A stretch of DNA of 64,000 nucleotides from Bacteriovoracaceae bacterium (GTDB lineage Bacteria; Bdellovibrionota; Bacteriovoracia; Bacteriovoracales; Bacteriovoracaceae): NCBI GenBank assembly GCA_048270185.1, contig JBLWTJ010000003.1, positions 192,001 to 256,000 of the forward strand, given 5' to 3'. The translations under genes and the position numbers were made by a program. The notes beneath the pieces were generated by a model that was not told the DNA's origin, did not search any database, and saw only the letters and a list, made by a program, of their open reading frames with translations. Below, in pieces: positions 36,458 through 42,343 of the stretch (positions are counted from its first letter, which is position 1; each line of letters opens with the position of its first letter).

Positions 36458-37504
36458 ATGTTTAAGAAATCCAAGATTGCTCTTGGCCTTGTTGTTATTT
36501 CTGCAATGGGACTAATTGCATGTTCAAGCGATGTAAATTCAAAACCAAACTTTCTATTTAAGAAAGCACCAAATGCAACATCTGTAATTAAGTTTAATGG
36601 TAAAGAAGTAAGTTATGACGAACTTTATAAAGGTTCAGAAGCTGAGTTATATGAAGTACAAATGAAATTGTATGAACTAAAGCTTGGAAAGGTTAAGGCC
36701 TATATTCTTGAGCAGTTTAAAAATGAAGACCCGGCCCGCTCTTCAATGACAATGGAACAATTCATTGATGTTGTTATCGCTAAAGATATTAAAATCTCAG
36801 ATGCTGAAGTAGATGCTTTTGCAAAAGAGAGAAAGATTCCTGAGGTAAATCCTCAGTTAAAAGCAAGAATTATTGATTTCTTAAAGAATTCAAAGAAGCG
36901 TGATGCCATCGAAGCTTACCTTGCTAAGAAGACTAAGAATAATCCTGTTGAGATCTATTTAGAGAAGCCTGCGCGTCCAAGAATTGATATTCCTGTCACT
37001 GGTACTGAGCCAAGCTTTGGTGGTAAAGATGTTGCAGTAACAATTGTTGAATTCTCTGACTTTCAGTGTCCATACTGTGCAAAGGGTGTTGAAATTATGA
37101 ATCAGATCAAGAAAACTTACGGAAATAAAGTTAAGATCGTTTTCAAAAACTTCCCACTTAGTTTTCACAAAGACGCTGCTAAAGCTGCAGAAGCTGCACT
37201 TTGTGCAAATGAACAGAGTAGTGATAAATTTTGGAAACTTCACGATGCGATGTTTGCTGACCAATCTGGTCTGGCAATCGATGGGCTAAAAGCAAAAGCT
37301 GGAAAAGTTGGACTTGATCAGAAGAAATTTGATGAGTGTCTGGACTCAGGAAAAATGAAAGCTGCCGTTGATGGAACTGTTAAAGAAGGAATGGATGTGG
37401 GTGTAAAATCAACTCCAACTTTCTATGTTAATGGAATGCTAATTAATGGAGCTCAACCATTTGAAATCTTTAAAGAACTAATTGATTCTGAATTAGCGAA
37501 GTAA
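36458..37504 (+). CDS. DsbA-family thioredoxin lipoprotein with N-terminal helical (SurA-N-like) region
   Basis: Lipobox LIAC, EFSDFQCPYC, FKNFPL, GVKSTPTFYVNG. Confidence 0.9.
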   Translation: MFKKSKIALGLVVISAMGLIACSSDVNSKPNFLFKKAPNATSVIKFNGKEVSYDELYKGSEAELYEVQMKLYELKLGKVKAYILEQFKNEDPARSSMTMEQFIDVVIAKDIKISDAEVDAFAKERKIPEVNPQLKARIIDFLKNSKKRDAIEAYLAKKTKNNPVEIYLEKPARPRIDIPVTGTEPSFGGKDVAVTIVEFSDFQCPYCAKGVEIMNQIKKTYGNKVKIVFKNFPLSFHKDAAKAAEAALCANEQSSDKFWKLHDAMFADQSGLAIDGLKAKAGKVGLDQKKFDECLDSGKMKAAVDGTVKEGMDVGVKSTPTFYVNGMLINGAQPFEIFKELIDSELAK

Positions 37505-37593: not shown

Positions 37594-39597
37594 GTGGTAT
37601 ATAACGCCTTGACGTGGAAGAATTATATGGAAATTAAAGATTATTCAAAGAGATTGGCAGATCATCGAAACAATTTTAACCGCATGGCCGAAGAGCAGCG
37701 TGAGAATTATAACCGTGAAATCGATGAACTAAAAGATACACAGGCCTATCGTTTAAATAAACAAAGAAAGTCATACGATAATTCCCTTAATAAATTAGAA
37801 GAAAAGCAAGATACATTTCGTGAAGTTGCAACACAAGATACAAAGAAGCGAGTGGAGTCTTTACAAAAAGACTTTATGAAGAAACTTGGAAGTAATAAGA
37901 GTGAGTTCGAGCGCGATCGAAAAGATTATCAAGACAAGTTCAACAATCGTTTTCAAGATATTCGTCAAGCTTATGAGGCCAAAGATCTGGCCAAAGAAAA
38001 TCAAATGAGTAATCGTATTGGTTCTCAGCAAAGACGCTATAGTGAAACTATTGATAAGATGAATGATCACTTCAATGACACGATTGATAAGGTCTATGCA
38101 AATTCACGTGAAACAGCTCACGATCATGAATTAAATACGAAGAATGATCGTCGCGCACTTATTGATCGCTATGAAAGTGAGATCCGTGACAATTTGAAAG
38201 AGTCAGGGGAGAAGCGTGCTAAAATCTATGAGCGCTTTAGCGAAGATGTAAATAATTTAAGAAATACTCATAAAGATCGTGAAAACTCATTAAAAGATTA
38301 TCAAAATGAGCGTATCAAAGATATGACGGCCCAAAAAGATGAGCAATTAGCACAGAATCAAAAGAGTTTTAAAAACTCAATTGATGATATCAATGATCGT
38401 AATTCAAGAAAGCAAATGGTCATTCAAAGGGATTCAAAGCAAATGGCCAAGGATCTCGAAAATCGTCATGCTAAAGAACTATATCGTGCTCGTCGCGAAA
38501 TGAATCAAAAGCTTTCGGGTGGAAGCCGTGAAGATATTTTCAATGATAAGCTTGAGCAAACAGAAAGAGGCTATGAGACGCGAATTAAAAATATTCGTGA
38601 TCAAATTGACTTAGACCGTTTCAATGCTGATGTTCAAGAGCGACGTCGAAATCAGTCAACTAAAGAAGCTCTACGACACCAAAAGCAAAGATCATCTGAG
38701 TATATTGCAGATCTTGAAAAAGATATGGCGCAATTTAAAAAAGATAAGCTTAGTGAAATCAATATTGAAGTTAACCGTGATGTTGAAGAGCTTCAGGATA
38801 ATTTTAAGCGACAAGTAAGAGAAAAAGAAGTTGAAGCATATAATGATAAGAATCACTCAAAGAATATTTTAGAAAAGCAGAGAAAGCAATTTGGTGAAAC
38901 TCTACAAAAAATGAGTGATAAGAACTCAGAAGCAGTTTCTCAAATGCAAGAAGACTTTGCTGATGAGTCAAAAGAGTTTATTCAAAAGACTCATTTAGAT
39001 CATTCAAAAGAGATGCAAGAAGCCAAAGAGCACTTCATTGAAAATAAAGCAAAACTTACTCAATCTTTAACGCAAAAGATTGAACTCTTAGAAGAGAATA
39101 ATGACAAGTTAATTTCTTCTTATGAAGCTAAGCTTAGTCGTTTAAAGAAGGCCAATGCAAAAGAGATTGAAAGAATTAGAATGAATCATCATATGCAATC
39201 TGAGCATTTGAAGGAAGAAACGAAGAATGTGATTGCCCTTAAAGATAGGGAAAACCAAAGTACTATTGCTCAACTGAGAGGAGATTTTGACAAGCGTCTA
39301 TCTCAAGTTAAACAAAGAGCAGACATTCAGGTAAAAAGAATGGTAGAGTACTATGAAGATAACTTAGCACGTGAGCGTGATGAGTCTCAAAGAAAGTATA
39401 TTAGTAAAGTGACAGAACTTGAAAATCAATACAATACTCTTTATGAGAACTCAAAGCTTGAGCGTTCGAACCTTATTAACCAATATGAGAATCGTATTGA
39501 AGAAGTTCGTGCTGCAAATGCTGAGGCGCTGGAAGAGAGAGCTCGTGATATCAAAACAGGAATGTTTAAAGAGCAACAAGATTCTCGAAAAGCTTAA
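37594..39597 (+). CDS. long charged coiled-coil protein
   Basis: 667 aa rich in E/K/R/Q/D, no Pro or Cys, no TM; start may be ATG 37627. Confidence 0.85.
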   Translation: MVYNALTWKNYMEIKDYSKRLADHRNNFNRMAEEQRENYNREIDELKDTQAYRLNKQRKSYDNSLNKLEEKQDTFREVATQDTKKRVESLQKDFMKKLGSNKSEFERDRKDYQDKFNNRFQDIRQAYEAKDLAKENQMSNRIGSQQRRYSETIDKMNDHFNDTIDKVYANSRETAHDHELNTKNDRRALIDRYESEIRDNLKESGEKRAKIYERFSEDVNNLRNTHKDRENSLKDYQNERIKDMTAQKDEQLAQNQKSFKNSIDDINDRNSRKQMVIQRDSKQMAKDLENRHAKELYRARREMNQKLSGGSREDIFNDKLEQTERGYETRIKNIRDQIDLDRFNADVQERRRNQSTKEALRHQKQRSSEYIADLEKDMAQFKKDKLSEINIEVNRDVEELQDNFKRQVREKEVEAYNDKNHSKNILEKQRKQFGETLQKMSDKNSEAVSQMQEDFADESKEFIQKTHLDHSKEMQEAKEHFIENKAKLTQSLTQKIELLEENNDKLISSYEAKLSRLKKANAKEIERIRMNHHMQSEHLKEETKNVIALKDRENQSTIAQLRGDFDKRLSQVKQRADIQVKRMVEYYEDNLARERDESQRKYISKVTELENQYNTLYENSKLERSNLINQYENRIEEVRAANAEALEERARDIKTGMFKEQQDSRKA

Positions 39598-39640: not shown

Positions 39641-41344
39641 ATGGGAATGGGCAAAGTCCGTCGCGCTAAAATTGTTGCGACTTTAGGTCCGTCATCAAAC
39701 ACTGTTGAAATGATCGAGAAATTGATCTTAGCAGGTGTTAACGTGACTCGAGTTAATATGAGTCATGGTACTCATGAATCTCATGCACAATTAATTTCAA
39801 ATATTCGCCAAGCTTCTAAAAATCTTAAGAGAGAAGTGGCAATTCTAATTGACCTACAAGGTCCAAAAATTAGAACAGATAAATTACCAAATGGATTACA
39901 GCTTAAAAATGGAGATACATGGGTTATTGGCCCATCTTCTAAACAAGCAGATTACCCAGAGTATAAAGATTGTTATATCCCAACGATTTATGAGCAGTTA
40001 GTTGACGATTGTCACGATGGTGCTCGTATCCTCTTTGATGATGGAAAGCTAATTGCAAAAGCAATTGAAAGAGATCGTGATGTTTATAAAATCGAAGTTA
40101 TTGTTGGGGGAGAGCTAAAGTCTAATAAAGGAATCAATCTTCCTGATTGTGAAGTTTCAGCTCCAGCATTTACTGAAAAAGACGAAGCAGACTTAATGTT
40201 TGCTCTAAAGCACAATATTGATTATATCGCGCTATCTTTTGTTCGTAAGAAAGAAGATATCATGACGGTAAAAGCACTTCTTCATAAACTTAAAGTGCGT
40301 GTGCCAATTATTTCTAAAATTGAAAAACCTCAGGCCCTTGATAATATCGATGAAATACTCGATGTAACAGATGTTATTATGGTTGCTCGTGGTGATATGG
40401 GAGTTGAAGTGGGTAACCACCTGGTTCCTTCAATTCAAAAAGAACTGATCCAGAAATGTAATGACCGTATGATTCCTGTTATTACAGCAACGCAGATGCT
40501 TGAGAGTATGACTGATGCACCAACTCCTACAAGAGCTGAGGCCAGTGATGTGGCCAATGCTATTTGGGATGGAACAGATGCGGTAATGCTATCTGGAGAA
40601 TCAGCTTCAGGCTCTTTTCCTGTTGAAGCAGTACAGATGATGAGTGATATTATTTTTGAAGCAGAGAAGACGCCAAAAGAGCGTCCACTGCTAAGAAATA
40701 TCGACCTTTCATCTGTTAATTCTTCTGTTATGGTTGCGGCTTCAATGATTGCAGAAAAGATTGGAGCTAAGAGAATTCTTGCGGCCACAGAAGGCGGAAA
40801 CTCTTGTCGTAAGGTTTCGATGTTTAGACCTAATACTCCTGTTGCTGGAGTTACTCATAATATCAGAACAGCTCGTCGAATCTGTCTTTACTGGGGTGTT
40901 TATCCTTATTTAGTAGAAGAAGAAGTTAAAGATACTGGTTCGTACGTAAAGTATATTGTTAAGCATGCTAAAGATAAGATGGGCCTCTTTAATGGTGATA
41001 AGGTTGTTATCACTTTAGGTGATGGAAAGATCTTTTCGAAAGGATATTCAAACTCTGTTAAGGTGGAGATTGTAAAAGAAGCTCCTCATAAGGATGAAAC
41101 AACAGGTGAACTTGAAGATACTTTTGAAATAGCAGAAGATAAAAAAAAAAGAATCTTACTAGATCATAATGTCTGTGCGACTTGCCAAAATTGTGTTGCG
41201 ATTTGTCCTCACGAGATTTGGACGGCCGATGCAAAGACAAAGCTTACAAAGATCAATCACGAACAGATTTCTTTTTGTACTCTCGATTATGAGTGTGTAA
41301 GAGTTTGTCCTACTGGTGCGATTGAGATAATCGATAAGGCTTAA
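39641..41344 (+). CDS. pyk: pyruvate kinase with C-terminal ferredoxin domain
   Basis: KIVATLGP, RVNMSHG, DLQGPKIR, SKIE, MVARGDMG, ATQMLESM, DAVMLSGE; C-terminal CATCQNCVAICP and CTLDYECVRVCP. Confidence 0.95.
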   Translation: MGMGKVRRAKIVATLGPSSNTVEMIEKLILAGVNVTRVNMSHGTHESHAQLISNIRQASKNLKREVAILIDLQGPKIRTDKLPNGLQLKNGDTWVIGPSSKQADYPEYKDCYIPTIYEQLVDDCHDGARILFDDGKLIAKAIERDRDVYKIEVIVGGELKSNKGINLPDCEVSAPAFTEKDEADLMFALKHNIDYIALSFVRKKEDIMTVKALLHKLKVRVPIISKIEKPQALDNIDEILDVTDVIMVARGDMGVEVGNHLVPSIQKELIQKCNDRMIPVITATQMLESMTDAPTPTRAEASDVANAIWDGTDAVMLSGESASGSFPVEAVQMMSDIIFEAEKTPKERPLLRNIDLSSVNSSVMVAASMIAEKIGAKRILAATEGGNSCRKVSMFRPNTPVAGVTHNIRTARRICLYWGVYPYLVEEEVKDTGSYVKYIVKHAKDKMGLFNGDKVVITLGDGKIFSKGYSNSVKVEIVKEAPHKDETTGELEDTFEIAEDKKKRILLDHNVCATCQNCVAICPHEIWTADAKTKLTKINHEQISFCTLDYECVRVCPTGAIEIIDKA

Positions 41345-41350
41345 TGGCCC

Positions 41351-42343
41351 ATGATTAGAAAAGACGATATTCAAAAAATTCTTAAAGGCCAGGGCCTTGA
41401 GGTTTGGGGTGTCGTCAAGGAATCCAAACCCAAATCAATTAGTAATTTTAAAGCATGGCTAAAAGACGGTCTCTATGGAGCTTTAGGCTATCTTGCGGAT
41501 GATCGTGCTGTTAAAAGAGAAGACTTAAAGAATTACTATCCTGATATCAAATCTACTTTAGTTATTGCATTTGATTATTCTCATATTGCTCGAAGTGCAA
41601 AGAAATTCTATGCCAGTGGTGAATCCAACGGCCTAAAGATTGCTAATTATGTCGTTGGTTTTAAGGGACGTGATTATCACTATGAAGTAAGAGATAAGTT
41701 GCAACGTATTGGGGAGGCCCTAAAAGAGTTAGACCCAAGCCTTGAGTTTAAATTCTCTCTTGATACGCAGCCTATTTTGGAGCGTGACTTTGCTTATCAG
41801 TCAGGCCTTGGTTGGTATGGCAAGAATTCCATGCTCATTAATCGCCACATTGGAAGCTACTTTATCATCGGGTCTTTGTTACTTAATAAAGAAATCCAAG
41901 CACCAAATGAAATATTTGAAACAGATCACTGCGGTCAATGTACTCGTTGCGCAGACGCTTGTCCGACTGATGCTATTGATTTAGAGAAACGAACAATTAT
42001 TGCAGATAAATGTATTTCTACTTTTACCATTGAACATTTTAAAGATATTGAGGCCCCTAAAGGTTTTGAAAAGGCAAATGGTGAAATCTTTGGTTGTGAT
42101 ATTTGCCAGGATGTTTGTCCCTGGAATGCAAGACTTGAGAGGAAGCTTGAAGCCGACGGCCTTGCTTTTAAAGAAAATGGAAAGCAATTTATCGACTTCT
42201 ATCTGATGCGGCCAATTGAAAAGATCATTAGTGATCTCGAAGAAATGAGTAATCGAGAGTATCGCCGAATTTTTAAAGGCACGCCACTTGAGCGAACAGG
42301 TCGTGTGGGAATGCTTAAAAATCTTAAAGCGACTTTAGAGTAA
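41351..42343 (+). CDS. queG: tRNA epoxyqueuosine reductase
   Basis: GRDYH, DTQPILER, GWYGKN, CGQCTRCADACPT, FGCDICQDVCPWN. Confidence 0.94.
   Translation: MIRKDDIQKILKGQGLEVWGVVKESKPKSISNFKAWLKDGLYGALGYLADDRAVKREDLKNYYPDIKSTLVIAFDYSHIARSAKKFYASGESNGLKIANYVVGFKGRDYHYEVRDKLQRIGEALKELDPSLEFKFSLDTQPILERDFAYQSGLGWYGKNSMLINRHIGSYFIIGSLLLNKEIQAPNEIFETDHCGQCTRCADACPTDAIDLEKRTIIADKCISTFTIEHFKDIEAPKGFEKANGEIFGCDICQDVCPWNARLERKLEADGLAFKENGKQFIDFYLMRPIEKIISDLEEMSNREYRRIFKGTPLERTGRVGMLKNLKATLE

Follow-up and report, generated by a model that had tools for sequence, protein, structure and literature searches.

The window, a stretch of 64,000 nucleotides from the genome of a Bacteriovoracaceae bacterium, carries on its forward strand an open reading frame of 567 amino acids (39641–41344) that contains no internal stop and places a pyruvate kinase (PK), a linker, and a ferredoxin domain in a single frame (Table 1). 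An earlier note on this DNA had described a complete PK followed by a C-terminal ferredoxin-type domain, and the description is borne out by Pfam, which matches PK, PK_C, and Fer4 within the one open reading frame. The gene, here called pyk-fd, is the sole PK-family gene in the source genome (95.9% complete), which argues for its product being a working enzyme that would convert PEP and ADP to pyruvate and ATP.

Table 1. Features of the pyk-fd locus, in positions of the window.
Feature	Position	Strand	Evidence and remarks
667-aa highly charged ORF, directly upstream of pyk	37594..39597	+	No Pfam match
pyk-fd gene, PK with C-terminal ferredoxin-type domain	39641..41344	+	567 aa plus stop; AF2 mean pLDDT 91.0, pTM 0.86
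PK A/B (barrel) domains, residues 7–331	39659..40633	+	PF00224, E 9.7e-116
His215 codon, C-terminal end of A-domain helix 204–216	40283..40285	+	Covaries with the ferredoxin tail
PK C (alpha/beta, allosteric) domain, residues 362–475	40724..41065	+	PF02887, E 2.4e-25
Charged linker, residues 476–504	41066..41152	+	Block 481–490 at pLDDT 51; relaxed selection
A10 homopolymer within Lys-Lys-Lys-Arg codons, domain boundary	41141..41150	+	1-nt frame changes here in three relatives
Ferredoxin-type domain, residues 505–567	41153..41341	+	Pfam Fer4; AF2 fold; dN/dS
Motif 1 CATCQNCVAICP, canonical all-Cys (C512-x2-C515-x2-C518-x3-C522-P523)	41174..41209	+	Invariant Cys in 73 aligned sequences
Motif 2 CTLDYECVRVCP, Asp for the second Cys (C546-x2-D549-x2-C552-x3-C556-P557)	41276..41311	+	Read in sequence
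queG (epoxyqueuosine reductase), operon neighbor 6 nt past the pyk stop	41351..42343	+	TIGR00276, 200.9 bits (cut-off 200)

The PK part matches its families over their entire length. The Pfam alignments are complete for both PF00224 (profile positions 2–328 of 328) and PF02887 (2–113 of 114), and the protein scores 523.2 bits against the NCBIfam equivalog TIGR01064 for pyruvate kinase (cut-off 306.4) and 529.8 bits against the subfamily NF004978 (cut-off 462), which also holds the PEP-utiliser-type PKs 2E28 and 3T05. These two are the closest solved PKs to the core by sequence (E 3e-113 and 3e-106) and by fold: the full-length AF2 model aligns to 2E28 with a Z score of 54.1 and an rmsd of 2.0 over 468 residues, and 49 further PK entries align at Z about 53. 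Within the barrel lies a signature of the K+-independent type, D-L72-Q73-G-P-K76-I-R, which a survey gives as L113/Q114/K117 in rabbit-muscle numbering for Lys117-type PKs (PMC12428139). K76 is invariant in 73 aligned sequences, whereas the PK of Staphylococcus aureus has Glu at the same position. We predict that pyk-fd encodes a working PK.

The C-terminal domain is matched by Fer4-type Pfam models at residues 505–562. Fer4 itself reaches 27.8 bits (cut-off 21.1), and further models stay just below their cut-offs on this tail (the dicluster models Fer4_9 26.9 and Fer4_7 26.7 against 27; Fer4_10 23.3 against 25.5); several of these Pfam models are passed by relatives. Both motifs are present in the form given by the earlier note, including Asp in place of the second Cys of motif 2. 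All eight ligand positions are invariant in the 73 aligned sequences, which come from several phyla. At the second position of motif 2, Asp stands in every one of the 78 genes of the family (Bacteriovoracaceae), and the 36 stored tailed proteins have Asp in 33 cases, Glu in 2, Asn in 1, and Cys in none. With motif 1 full and Asp549 in motif 2, the tail departs from the clostridial 2x[4Fe-4S] type, which has two full Cys motifs, and has the single Asp-for-Cys exchange of an Asp-type ferredoxin. An Asp in place of Cys-II is described, in the available text of PMC2946596, as marking a site either for [3Fe-4S] or for an O2-labile [4Fe-4S] with Asp as ligand.

The same exchange is found in the zinc ferredoxins of Sulfolobus and Acidianus (1XER, 2VKR) and in Pyrococcus furiosus ferredoxin (1SIZ, 2Z8Q). 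The tail matches these over its whole length with E-values of 0.12–0.15 for 1XER and 2VKR and 0.0047 for 2Z8Q, and its fold matches 1SIZ with TM scores of 0.52/0.54. However, the substituted motif is the second in pyk-fd but the first in the zinc and P. furiosus ferredoxins, pyk-fd does not have the zinc-binding extension, and those proteins are free electron carriers, whereas the pyk-fd module is fused to a non-redox enzyme.

Modeled alone, the tail (pLDDT 76.9) is predicted to form a compact (beta-alpha-beta)x2 structure with a bacterial-type ferredoxin fold, and matches known ferredoxin folds at a probability of 1.00 (TM 0.5–0.66, rmsd 2.2–3.1 over ~64 residues). A search of the ESM Atlas with the tail returned only generic small ferredoxins (0.87–0.88), and no paralogue of it was found in the source genome. 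By structure and sequence, its best matches are PorD (9BT4_G), the delta subunit of oxalate oxidoreductase (5C4I), the beta subunit of APS reductase (3GYX_B/1JNR_B), and the polyferredoxin MvhB (9SW6_G). Unlike the pyk-fd tail, these are all-Cys dicluster modules of electron-transfer chains, and no chain of that sort lies beside fused pyk in the contexts read. That the best structural matches are electron-transfer subunits counts against a regulatory reading of the tail.

The fusion might be an artefact or a neutral accident, arising from an assembly or frame error or from recent read-through into a ferredoxin gene, and there are grounds for suspicion in the A10 run at the junction, where the assemblies of three relatives are frameshifted. 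However, Logan contigs from three runs of two other studies span the linker, tail, and stop codon with no gaps and with the frame kept, although contigs as such are blind to rare variants; X3 (2484 nt) covers 40779–41700, X1 (717 nt) 41096–41700, and X4 (195 nt) 41113–41307. The continuous frame is no assembly accident of the source record. A stop or indel splitting the gene in two, one of the outcomes that the earlier note had named as fatal to a fusion, is absent from these independent contigs. Another, a ferredoxin encoded separately in relatives, is not what is seen: the three apparent splits are 1-nt changes in poly-A length, and the tail frame in them has no start codon of its own. Moreover, among the 96 PK-bearing genomes of the order, 78 have the fused form, which spans about 40 genera, 3 have a frameshift in the poly-A run, and 15 lack the tail; two further families of Bdellovibrionota share the architecture, as do proteins labeled Planctomycetota, Wallbacteria, and Spirochaetota, and the neighboring genes differ there. 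The tail is also strongly constrained, with dN/dS values of 0.013–0.17 where dS could be computed, compared to 0.008–0.08 for the PK core and 0.02–0.62 for the linker; it is under purifying selection close to that on the core, and the linker is looser. An artefactual or neutral origin is refuted as far as sequence data allow, and we regard it as next to impossible. The fusion of PK to ferredoxin is real, old, selected, and widespread.

It has also been undone repeatedly. Supported branches force at least three changes, and the best tree needs seven; this repeated loss marks the domain as accessory, which favors the regulatory reading set out below. Eleven lineages of the family do without the tail, which is therefore dispensable, a point against that reading. 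No close stand-alone copy of the tail was found in the 5 of 11 tail-less genomes that were examined (best match 26.5 bits). As for the origin of the tailed PKs, the ML tree needs ten changes, and placing them in one clade gives a p-AU of 0.214. A metagenome scan with the tailed protein P0049 yielded 3 fused genes among 80 loci; two further loci with long matches, L198 and L231, turned out to be tail-less. A genome scan with P0021, which matched through generic PK peptides, returned 80 ordinary PK loci, and none of 68 PK frames had a two-motif tail; the long match at L158 was a false extension. Our literature search, which did not extend to subscription journals, turned up no study of a PK that carries an Fe-S or ferredoxin domain, and no Fe-S type is among the extra C-terminal sequences listed for PKs in the available text of section 2.12 of a 2025 survey (PMC12428139). 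The layout occurs in several bacterial phyla and has apparently never been studied.

The match of the downstream gene to TIGR00276 agrees with the earlier identification of the Fe-S/cobalamin reductase QueG 6 nt past pyk. The earlier note had also proposed that the tail is an electron carrier for QueG, in which case a ferredoxin gene once located between pyk and queG would have become fused to pyk. Within the family, queG directly follows pyk on the same strand in 75 of the 78 fused loci, with gaps of −34 to +21 nt. The available text of the QueG structure papers names no physiological donor and allows for either cluster to receive electrons from another protein (PMC4646009, PMC5175355), and flavodoxin (PF00258) was not found in the source genome at its 95.9% completeness. 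However, the adjacency persists, with nothing between the genes, in 10 of the 11 tail-less family genomes, and no QueG-like sequence was found in the fetched flanks of six fused loci outside the family (G183, G206, G214, L182, L183, and L185). The synteny on which the proposal leaned is hence conserved within the family, but with or without the tail, and it is absent from the fetched flanks of the six fused loci outside it. The five tail-less genomes mentioned above also hold no close free-standing tail that could serve QueG, and a role as its carrier leaves the tracking of the tail by a PK residue (see below) unexplained. Nor is the tail similar to QueG's own ferredoxin domain: BLASTP gives no alignment between them, and a derivation of the tail from that domain was rejected. 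Service to QueG is accordingly disfavored, and we consider it highly unlikely; the conserved pyk-queG operon of the family does not account for the tail. The 667-aa upstream ORF is a syntenic neighbor of fused and unfused pyk alike, and BLASTP found no significant similarity between it and the 650-aa ORFs that two other families have upstream of their fused genes. The recurrence of the same architecture among different neighbors across phyla links the tail to PK rather than to an adjoining gene.

Alternatively, the tail could be a tethered carrier for some other partner, for example, a 2-oxoacid:ferredoxin oxidoreductase oxidizing the pyruvate made by PK, so that substrate and acceptor would be delivered together. 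The resemblance to the delta subunit of Methanosarcina acetivorans PFOR (9bt4_G; TM 0.66/0.57, rmsd 2.5 over 64) fits such a role, as do the place of the oxalate oxidoreductase delta subunit among the best structural matches and weak NCBIfam matches of the tail to PorD/KorD, and the genome does encode a protein of the indolepyruvate:ferredoxin oxidoreductase family (a 1157-aa frame). Small ferredoxins are generically alike, though, and the likeness to PorD is therefore weak evidence. The POR_N domain was not found in the source genome, the contexts read have no oxidoreductase gene beside fused pyk, and of the genomes that lack the tail, 7 of 11 have the gene of the indolepyruvate:ferredoxin oxidoreductase family, which was not found in 13 fused ones. 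The tail does not co-occur with this gene, and we judge a carrier role for a partner other than QueG to be distinctly improbable.

A link between the tail and the enzyme itself is suggested by His215. Within the family, this residue is present in all 77 fused and all 3 frameshifted PKs but in only 1 of 11 tail-less ones; among the stored proteins, all but one of the 36 tailed PKs have it (in clusters at 90% identity, 25 of 26), as against 9 of 225 plain PKs and none of the 9 remaining long ones. No other column comes close in separating tailed from plain PKs (0.97 versus 0.04; the runner-up reaches 0.69 versus 0.12). The one tailed PK without it, P0043, has Arg instead, and no other tailed PK has Asn in motif 2. 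Independent contrasts between His215 and the tail number only three on supported branches, all in one direction (p 0.25), and His215 could mark a lineage instead of forming a contact, given that one common origin for the cores of tailed PKs is not rejected. Read from the alignments, the association of His215 with the tail is a new result of the present analysis.

Few metabolic control points have been studied as much as pyruvate kinase. To our knowledge, all known controls of PK are exerted by small-molecule effectors, phosphorylation, or an extra domain of the PEP-utiliser type. PKs of the last kind (Geobacillus stearothermophilus 2E28, S. aureus 3T05, and Bacillus subtilis Pyk) have a domain of ~70–110 residues past the C domain, as does pyk-fd, but theirs is a PEP-utiliser swivel domain, whereas that of pyk-fd has an Fe-S ferredoxin fold; PF00391, the PEP-utilising mobile domain, has no match in pyk-fd at E-values up to 0.01 but does match four of the long representatives. 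In Bacillota PKs, the extra C-terminal domain is autoinhibitory and required for gluconeogenic growth, according to the available text of PMC11834443. By analogy, we propose that the tail is a regulatory domain responsive to redox state, O2, or iron, a reading that we find plausible although a shade short of an even bet. One all-Cys [4Fe-4S] cluster would be held by C512, C515, C518, and C556, and a second by C546, C552, and C522, Asp549 taking the position of a fourth Cys; three Cys and Asp549 suggest that the second is either a [3Fe-4S] or an Asp-ligated, labile [4Fe-4S] cluster. The module would pack on the PK body, with the residue His215 of the catalytic A domain in the contact or close to it, and would regulate the enzyme as part of the same chain. 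How oxidized the labile cluster is, whether it is intact, or how much iron it holds could then move the PK tetramer between states of lower and higher activity, such that the flux from PEP to pyruvate would track redox, O2, or iron status. The tail would in this way correspond, with Fe-S chemistry, to the PEP-utiliser-type domain by which Bacillota PKs are autoinhibited in gluconeogenesis.

Hints of docking come from the models. The pLDDT of the tail rises from 72–81 when folded alone to 84–94 in the full-length model (pTM 0.86), and the alignment to 2E28 is the only one that reaches both extra domains, extending to residue 534 of the model and 585 of the chain; the full-length model is a monomer and silent on contacts between subunits. 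Our best guess that the domain senses redox state or O2, which the earlier note had also suggested, draws indirect support from purifying selection, from the position that is never Cys, and from the covariation of His215. The Asp does not have to imply sensing, as ferredoxins of the 7Fe type serve aerobes as ordinary, stable electron carriers.

Purifying selection and the coupling to His215 fit a structural contact equally well, and the Fe-S domain could be purely structural, stabilizing the tetramer or the active conformation with no sensing. There is precedent in the C' domain of Geobacillus stearothermophilus PK, which has been proposed to stabilize the tetramer (PMC4448766), and in the Thermoplasma enzyme's extra C-terminal sequence, which PMC12428139 reports to stabilize quaternary structure and activity. 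Against this, a module with two clusters, costly and exposed to oxygen, would make an odd brace, the clean loss of the tail on several occasions means that the PK tetramer does not need it, and the universal absence of Cys from the second position of motif 2, the one site where this renders a cluster labile or three-iron (0 of 78 family genes and 0 of 36 stored proteins), suggests that the cluster chemistry matters. We regard a bracing role as rather unlikely. A stricter form of the regulatory reading, in which PK is switched directly by the Fe-S site, strikes us as quite unlikely: His215 would lie at the open corner of the three-Cys cluster, or would bind the domain only with the cluster intact, and 3Fe/4Fe conversion, oxidation by O2, or loss of iron would set PK activity in one step.

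If the regulatory reading is true, the Fe-S domain would couple the switch between glycolysis and gluconeogenesis to oxygen, redox, or iron in a new way, and if the direct switch is true, a glycolytic kinase would be a primary redox or iron sensor in aerobic predators and several anaerobic phyla. The fusion is conserved in obligately predatory marine bacteria, which have to switch their metabolism between an attack and a growth phase, and it is also present in uncultured Planctomycetota, Wallbacteria, and Spirochaetota. The system is tractable, being a soluble enzyme with a standard assay, a deletable domain, and point-mutant sites at H215 and D549.

A minor observation concerns the A10 run, which is kept unbroken in 17 of ~35 family genes with Lys-Lys-Lys at this place (hand count). 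Selection for the run is not indicated, since this is judged to be roughly what a strong preference for AAA, which we assume, would give by itself. As a second layer of the direct-switch reading, the slippery run may let RNA polymerase or replication yield a tail-less, unregulated isoform of PK.

The pyk-fd gene is a single uninterrupted open reading frame in which a pyruvate kinase (PK) barrel, a PK_C domain and a C-terminal ferredoxin-type domain (the tail) follow one another (see table), which confirms the PK-ferredoxin fusion described in the earlier note; both Cys motifs likewise stand as it gave them. The NCBIfam pyruvate kinase model TIGR01064 scores 523 bits against a cut-off of 306, and in the core the L/Q/K residues that mark K+-independent PKs are present, while the dicluster ferredoxin Pfam models score slightly below their own cut-offs on the tail. 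This is the only PK-family gene in the genome (3.35 Mb, 95.9% complete), and the closest protein cluster, 90% identical, bears the source name Halobacteriovorax sp. The frame was checked independently in contigs only, so that rare variants could go unseen: a 2484-nt Logan contig from the seawater metagenome of another study spans 40779-41700 with no gaps, and in two plastic-metagenome runs Logan contigs likewise read from the linker through the tail to the stop without gaps. No stop or indel separating the PK from the ferredoxin was found in these contigs, and one gene stands.

Features of the pyk-fd locus and of related loci (coordinates without a handle are those of the window; G, genome; L, fetched locus)
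Feature	Position	Details
pyk-fd	39641-41344 (+)	567 codons
PK barrel	residues 7-331	Pfam, E 9.7e-116
PK_C domain	residues 362-475	Pfam
Fer4-type matches	residues 505-562	Pfam; Fer4 27.8 bits, cut-off 21.1
A10 run	41141-41150	PK/ferredoxin boundary
Motif 1	41174-41209	CATCQNCVAICP
Motif 2	41276-41311	CTLDYECVRVCP
queG	41351-42343	6 nt downstream of pyk-fd; NCBIfam 200.9 bits, cut-off 200
Poly-A run in frameshifted relatives	L014 4640-4655; L015 4664-4680; L016 1240-1252	
Charged ORF upstream of pyk	37594-39597 (+)	
Upstream 650-667-aa ORF, other families	L099 2083-4035; L100 7738-9690 (-); L101 5752-7722 (-)	
Fused pyk neighbours, G183		prs, pth, ychF
Fused pyk neighbours, G206		unknown ORF, mutS
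Fused pyk neighbours, G214		unknown ORFs
Fused pyk neighbours, three Planctomycetota-like contigs		aspS upstream, priA convergent downstream
Second PK-barrel frames	G009:C4:269740-270717; G023:C14:189809-190819; G079:C247; G085:C32	
Second PK-barrel frames, other families	G113, G121, G224	

With the protein as query, a PK was found in 96 of 101 genomes from the same order, and all 96 loci were fetched and classified by script: 78 are fused, in 3 the ferredoxin part lies out of frame with the PK, and 15 are tail-less, 11 of these being of the family's own type (54-67% identity) and 4 distant (37-43%). Motif 2 reads CxxDxxCxxxCP in all 78 fused genes and motif 1 reads CxxCxxCxxxCP in 74, with a final Ala for Pro in three and one additional residue in one. 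In a FastTree phylogeny built on the PK core, tail-less genes branch from within the fused ones, with seven tail gains or losses on the best tree and at least three forced by supported branches; the simplest reading is that the fusion is ancestral and that the tail was then lost repeatedly. Nei-Gojobori dN/dS values, taken only where synonymous divergence was unsaturated, are 0.013-0.17 for the tail, 0.008-0.08 for the core and 0.02-0.62 for the linker, and mark the tail as a selected domain. The PK-ferredoxin fusion is thus real, conserved and selected; that it might be an artefact is hardly credible in view of the gap-free independent contigs, the constraint on the tail and the number of fused loci in the order.

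The earlier note had envisaged that relatives might encode the ferredoxin separately, but no such gene was found. In the three genomes with a split arrangement (G095, G007 and G036) the frame shifts inside a poly-A run coding for the Lys-rich end of the linker, the run being one A shorter than its in-frame length in each case, and the ferredoxin frame lacks a start codon; separate genes were therefore rejected, and the frame changes are either homopolymer length errors or real slippage variants. Five of the 11 tail-less genomes were searched for a close stand-alone copy of the tail, and none was found (best match 26.5 bits). Within the 64 kb of the window the A10 run of pyk-fd is the sole A/T run of that length, where dinucleotide shuffles expect 4.9, and it is one of 10 such runs genome-wide, only 4 of which lie inside long ORFs. 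It is kept as A10 in 17 of the 78 fused relatives and as A9 in 3. A change of +1 or -1 would lead to a stop within ~10 codons and give a tail-less PK; the one-A differences of the three frameshifted relatives, which fall precisely on this run, could reflect sequencing error, phase variation or transcriptional slippage.

Further afield, when 151 genomes of the phylum were searched with a profile, matches extended to the tail end in three groups only: 20 of the 24 sampled genomes of the window's family, one genome of a second family (G183) and two of a third (G206 and G214), the last two groups making up 3 of the 127 genomes outside the window's family. The remaining PKs of the phylum stop at profile position ~475-480 or extend only through stop codons. 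Among 1.84 billion representative proteins, a profile search with subsequent Pfam scans showed the same architecture on PK cores just 37-45% identical to that of the window, and two word-index searches gave further tailed PKs; the source names of these clusters are Planctomycetota bacterium, Candidatus Wallbacteria bacterium GWC2_49_35 and Spirochaetota bacterium. In all, 36 stored proteins, which form 26 clusters at 90% identity, have the tail. Because none of the 68 PK frames evaluated from 80 arbitrary PK loci of GTDB species genomes has a tail, we consider the architecture rare. Tailed proteins fall in about nine places on PK-core trees, and a tree holding all tailed cores together is not rejected (p-AU 0.214), so that one origin or several are both compatible with the trees.

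In the ferredoxin fold, clusters are ligated cross-wise between the two motifs. By this rule C512, C515, C518 and C556 are presumably the ligands of an ordinary [4Fe-4S] cluster, and we take C546, C552 and C522 with Asp549 to be those of a three-iron or labile cluster. All seven Cys and Pro557 are invariant across an alignment of 73 fused proteins, and the second position of motif 2 is Asp in 33 of the 36 tailed proteins, Glu in two, Asn in one and Cys in none. According to the accessible text of a review of archaeal ferredoxins (PMC2946596), the second Cys is replaced by Asp, or tilted away, where the fold holds [3Fe-4S], and the equivalent Asp ligates an oxygen-labile [4Fe-4S] cluster in P. 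furiosus-type ferredoxins. By sequence the tail best matches polyferredoxin repeats, with full-length matches to small mono- and 7Fe ferredoxins too. Modelled alone (pLDDT 76.9) it matched ferredoxin modules at probability 1.00, among them APS reductase beta, PFOR delta (TM 0.66/0.57), oxalate oxidoreductase delta and the P. furiosus [Fe3S4] ferredoxin.

Adjacency to queG had suggested that the tail might be a tethered electron carrier for QueG, for which the accessible parts of the structure papers (PMC4646009, PMC5175355) name no physiological donor. The synteny is indeed conserved in the family, with queG next after pyk, and in the same orientation, in 75 of 78 fused loci and in 3/3 frameshifted ones, often with overlapping stop and start; however, it is kept in 10 of 11 tail-less family loci as well, and the pyk-queG operon is therefore a family trait independent of the tail. 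Outside the family the fused gene has different neighbours (see table), and tblastn with QueG detected no QueG-like sequence in any of those six loci (G183, G206, G214 and the three Planctomycetota-like contigs). The proposal was thus not borne out, and such a role is very improbable. As an observation in its own right, pyk and queG (39641-42343) form a tightly packed pair in 88 of 92 family-type loci, joining, for no evident reason, a glycolytic kinase with a tRNA-queuosine enzyme.

Some other oxidoreductase is a rather unlikely partner for a tethered carrier, though less so than QueG. For 2-oxoacid:ferredoxin oxidoreductases the link is unsupported: neither a POR_N domain nor a flavodoxin was found in the window's genome, that of an aerobic predator, and an indolepyruvate-oxidoreductase-family gene occurs in 7 of 11 tail-less genomes and was not found in 13 fused ones, giving no co-occurrence with the tail. 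In the order, 80 of the 101 genomes have a gene of the indolepyruvate:ferredoxin-oxidoreductase family; in the window's genome it is a 1157-aa frame (G000:C1:735965-738790 (-), locus L098), whose 328 bits fall short of the curated cut-off of 816. The gene two positions upstream of pyk, 36458-37504 (+), probably encodes a lipoprotein, with a Cys following the signal-like N-terminus, and ends in a DsbA/thioredoxin domain with a CPYC motif (Thioredoxin_4, E 1.3e-31). The ORF directly upstream of pyk is highly charged (K/E/R/D/N/Q-rich). Such ORFs of 650-667 aa, probably coding for a coiled coil or repeat and lacking any Pfam match, abut or overlap the pyk start in the window's family and in the two other Bdellovibrionota families with fused PK, and also precede tail-less pyk (L019, L021 and L024); they evolve fast, identity being down to ~33% even within the window's own genus for some genomes, with no significant similarity between families.

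A column-by-column comparison of fused and tail-less family PKs over residues 101-485 found two separating columns only, His215 and Lys218, at the end of A-domain helix 204-216. His215 is present in 77/77 fused PKs (one partial gene is gapped there), in 3/3 frameshifted ones and in 1 of 11 tail-less PKs, the others having K, Q, N or A; the exception, from G058, has the core most like the fused ones, and its tail loss may for this reason be the most recent. It is also by far the most discriminating column among 270 stored PKs, where counts that include related, non-independent sequences place it in 35 of 36 tailed proteins (25 of 26 clusters), in 9 of the 225 plain PKs, none of them close kin of the tailed PKs, and in 0 of 9 with other long C-termini. 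The lone tailed exception, P0043, has Arg at 215 and is also alone in having Asn in motif 2. Supported branches provide only three contrasts of fused with tail-less PKs, which all point the same way (p 0.25). Should the tailed cores all belong to one clade, inheritance could account for part of the His215 pattern. That the His is lost once the tail has gone speaks for a functional link between the two.

Of the systems described so far, the extra C-terminal domain found in Bacillota PKs comes nearest; among solved structures, the window's PK core is closest to the S. aureus and G. stearothermophilus enzymes, both of which have that domain. The full-length AF2 model (pLDDT 91.0, pTM 0.86; 51 for linker block 481-490) gives the tail pLDDT 84-94, versus 72-81 alone with equally deep alignments, and among 50 VIA-align entries listed, 2E28 (G. 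stearothermophilus PK) alone aligns into both extra domains (model 5-534, chain 1-585), the others ending at 478-482. Together, the rise in pLDDT and the 2E28 range hint that the tail docks roughly at the position of the Bacillota C' domain. Tetramer stabilisation was proposed earlier for the extra domain of PKs (PMC4448766) and appears also in the available text of PMC12428139; a structural brace seems an unlikely role for the tail here. In B. subtilis and relatives, as stated in the accessible part of PMC11834443, the domain is autoinhibitory, and efficient growth under gluconeogenic conditions depends on it. By analogy, pyk-fd would be a PK with a regulatory extra domain that differs from those of Bacillota in being a ferredoxin, without PEP-utiliser homology by Pfam scan. 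An Fe-S-based regulatory domain, which would make PK activity depend on the redox, oxygen or iron state by way of a contact in which His215 takes part, is the most likely of the mechanisms considered, ahead of brace, carrier and artefact, and is put forward tentatively, at somewhat below an even chance. Full-text searches turned up no publication in which a PK bears a ferredoxin or Fe-S domain, and the accessible text of a 2025 survey of PK C-terminal extensions (PMC12428139) mentions no Fe-S type; the fusion has apparently not been studied before.

Other unusual PK architectures were also encountered. In P0012, a 1051-aa protein of the representative library, two PK-barrel stretches are followed at the C-terminus by an adenylate kinase domain (PF00406, E 5.6e-38), which makes it a fusion of PK and adenylate kinase. 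P0171 (629 aa, Chloroflexota MAG by source) is a PK without a ferredoxin tail in which ~150 A-domain residues are duplicated internally, seen as a long insert in alignment A4. Some genomes hold a second frame of 718-745 aa whose first ~340 residues match the PK barrel only (30-34% identity), which identifies these frames, by sequence, as PK-barrel fusion proteins.
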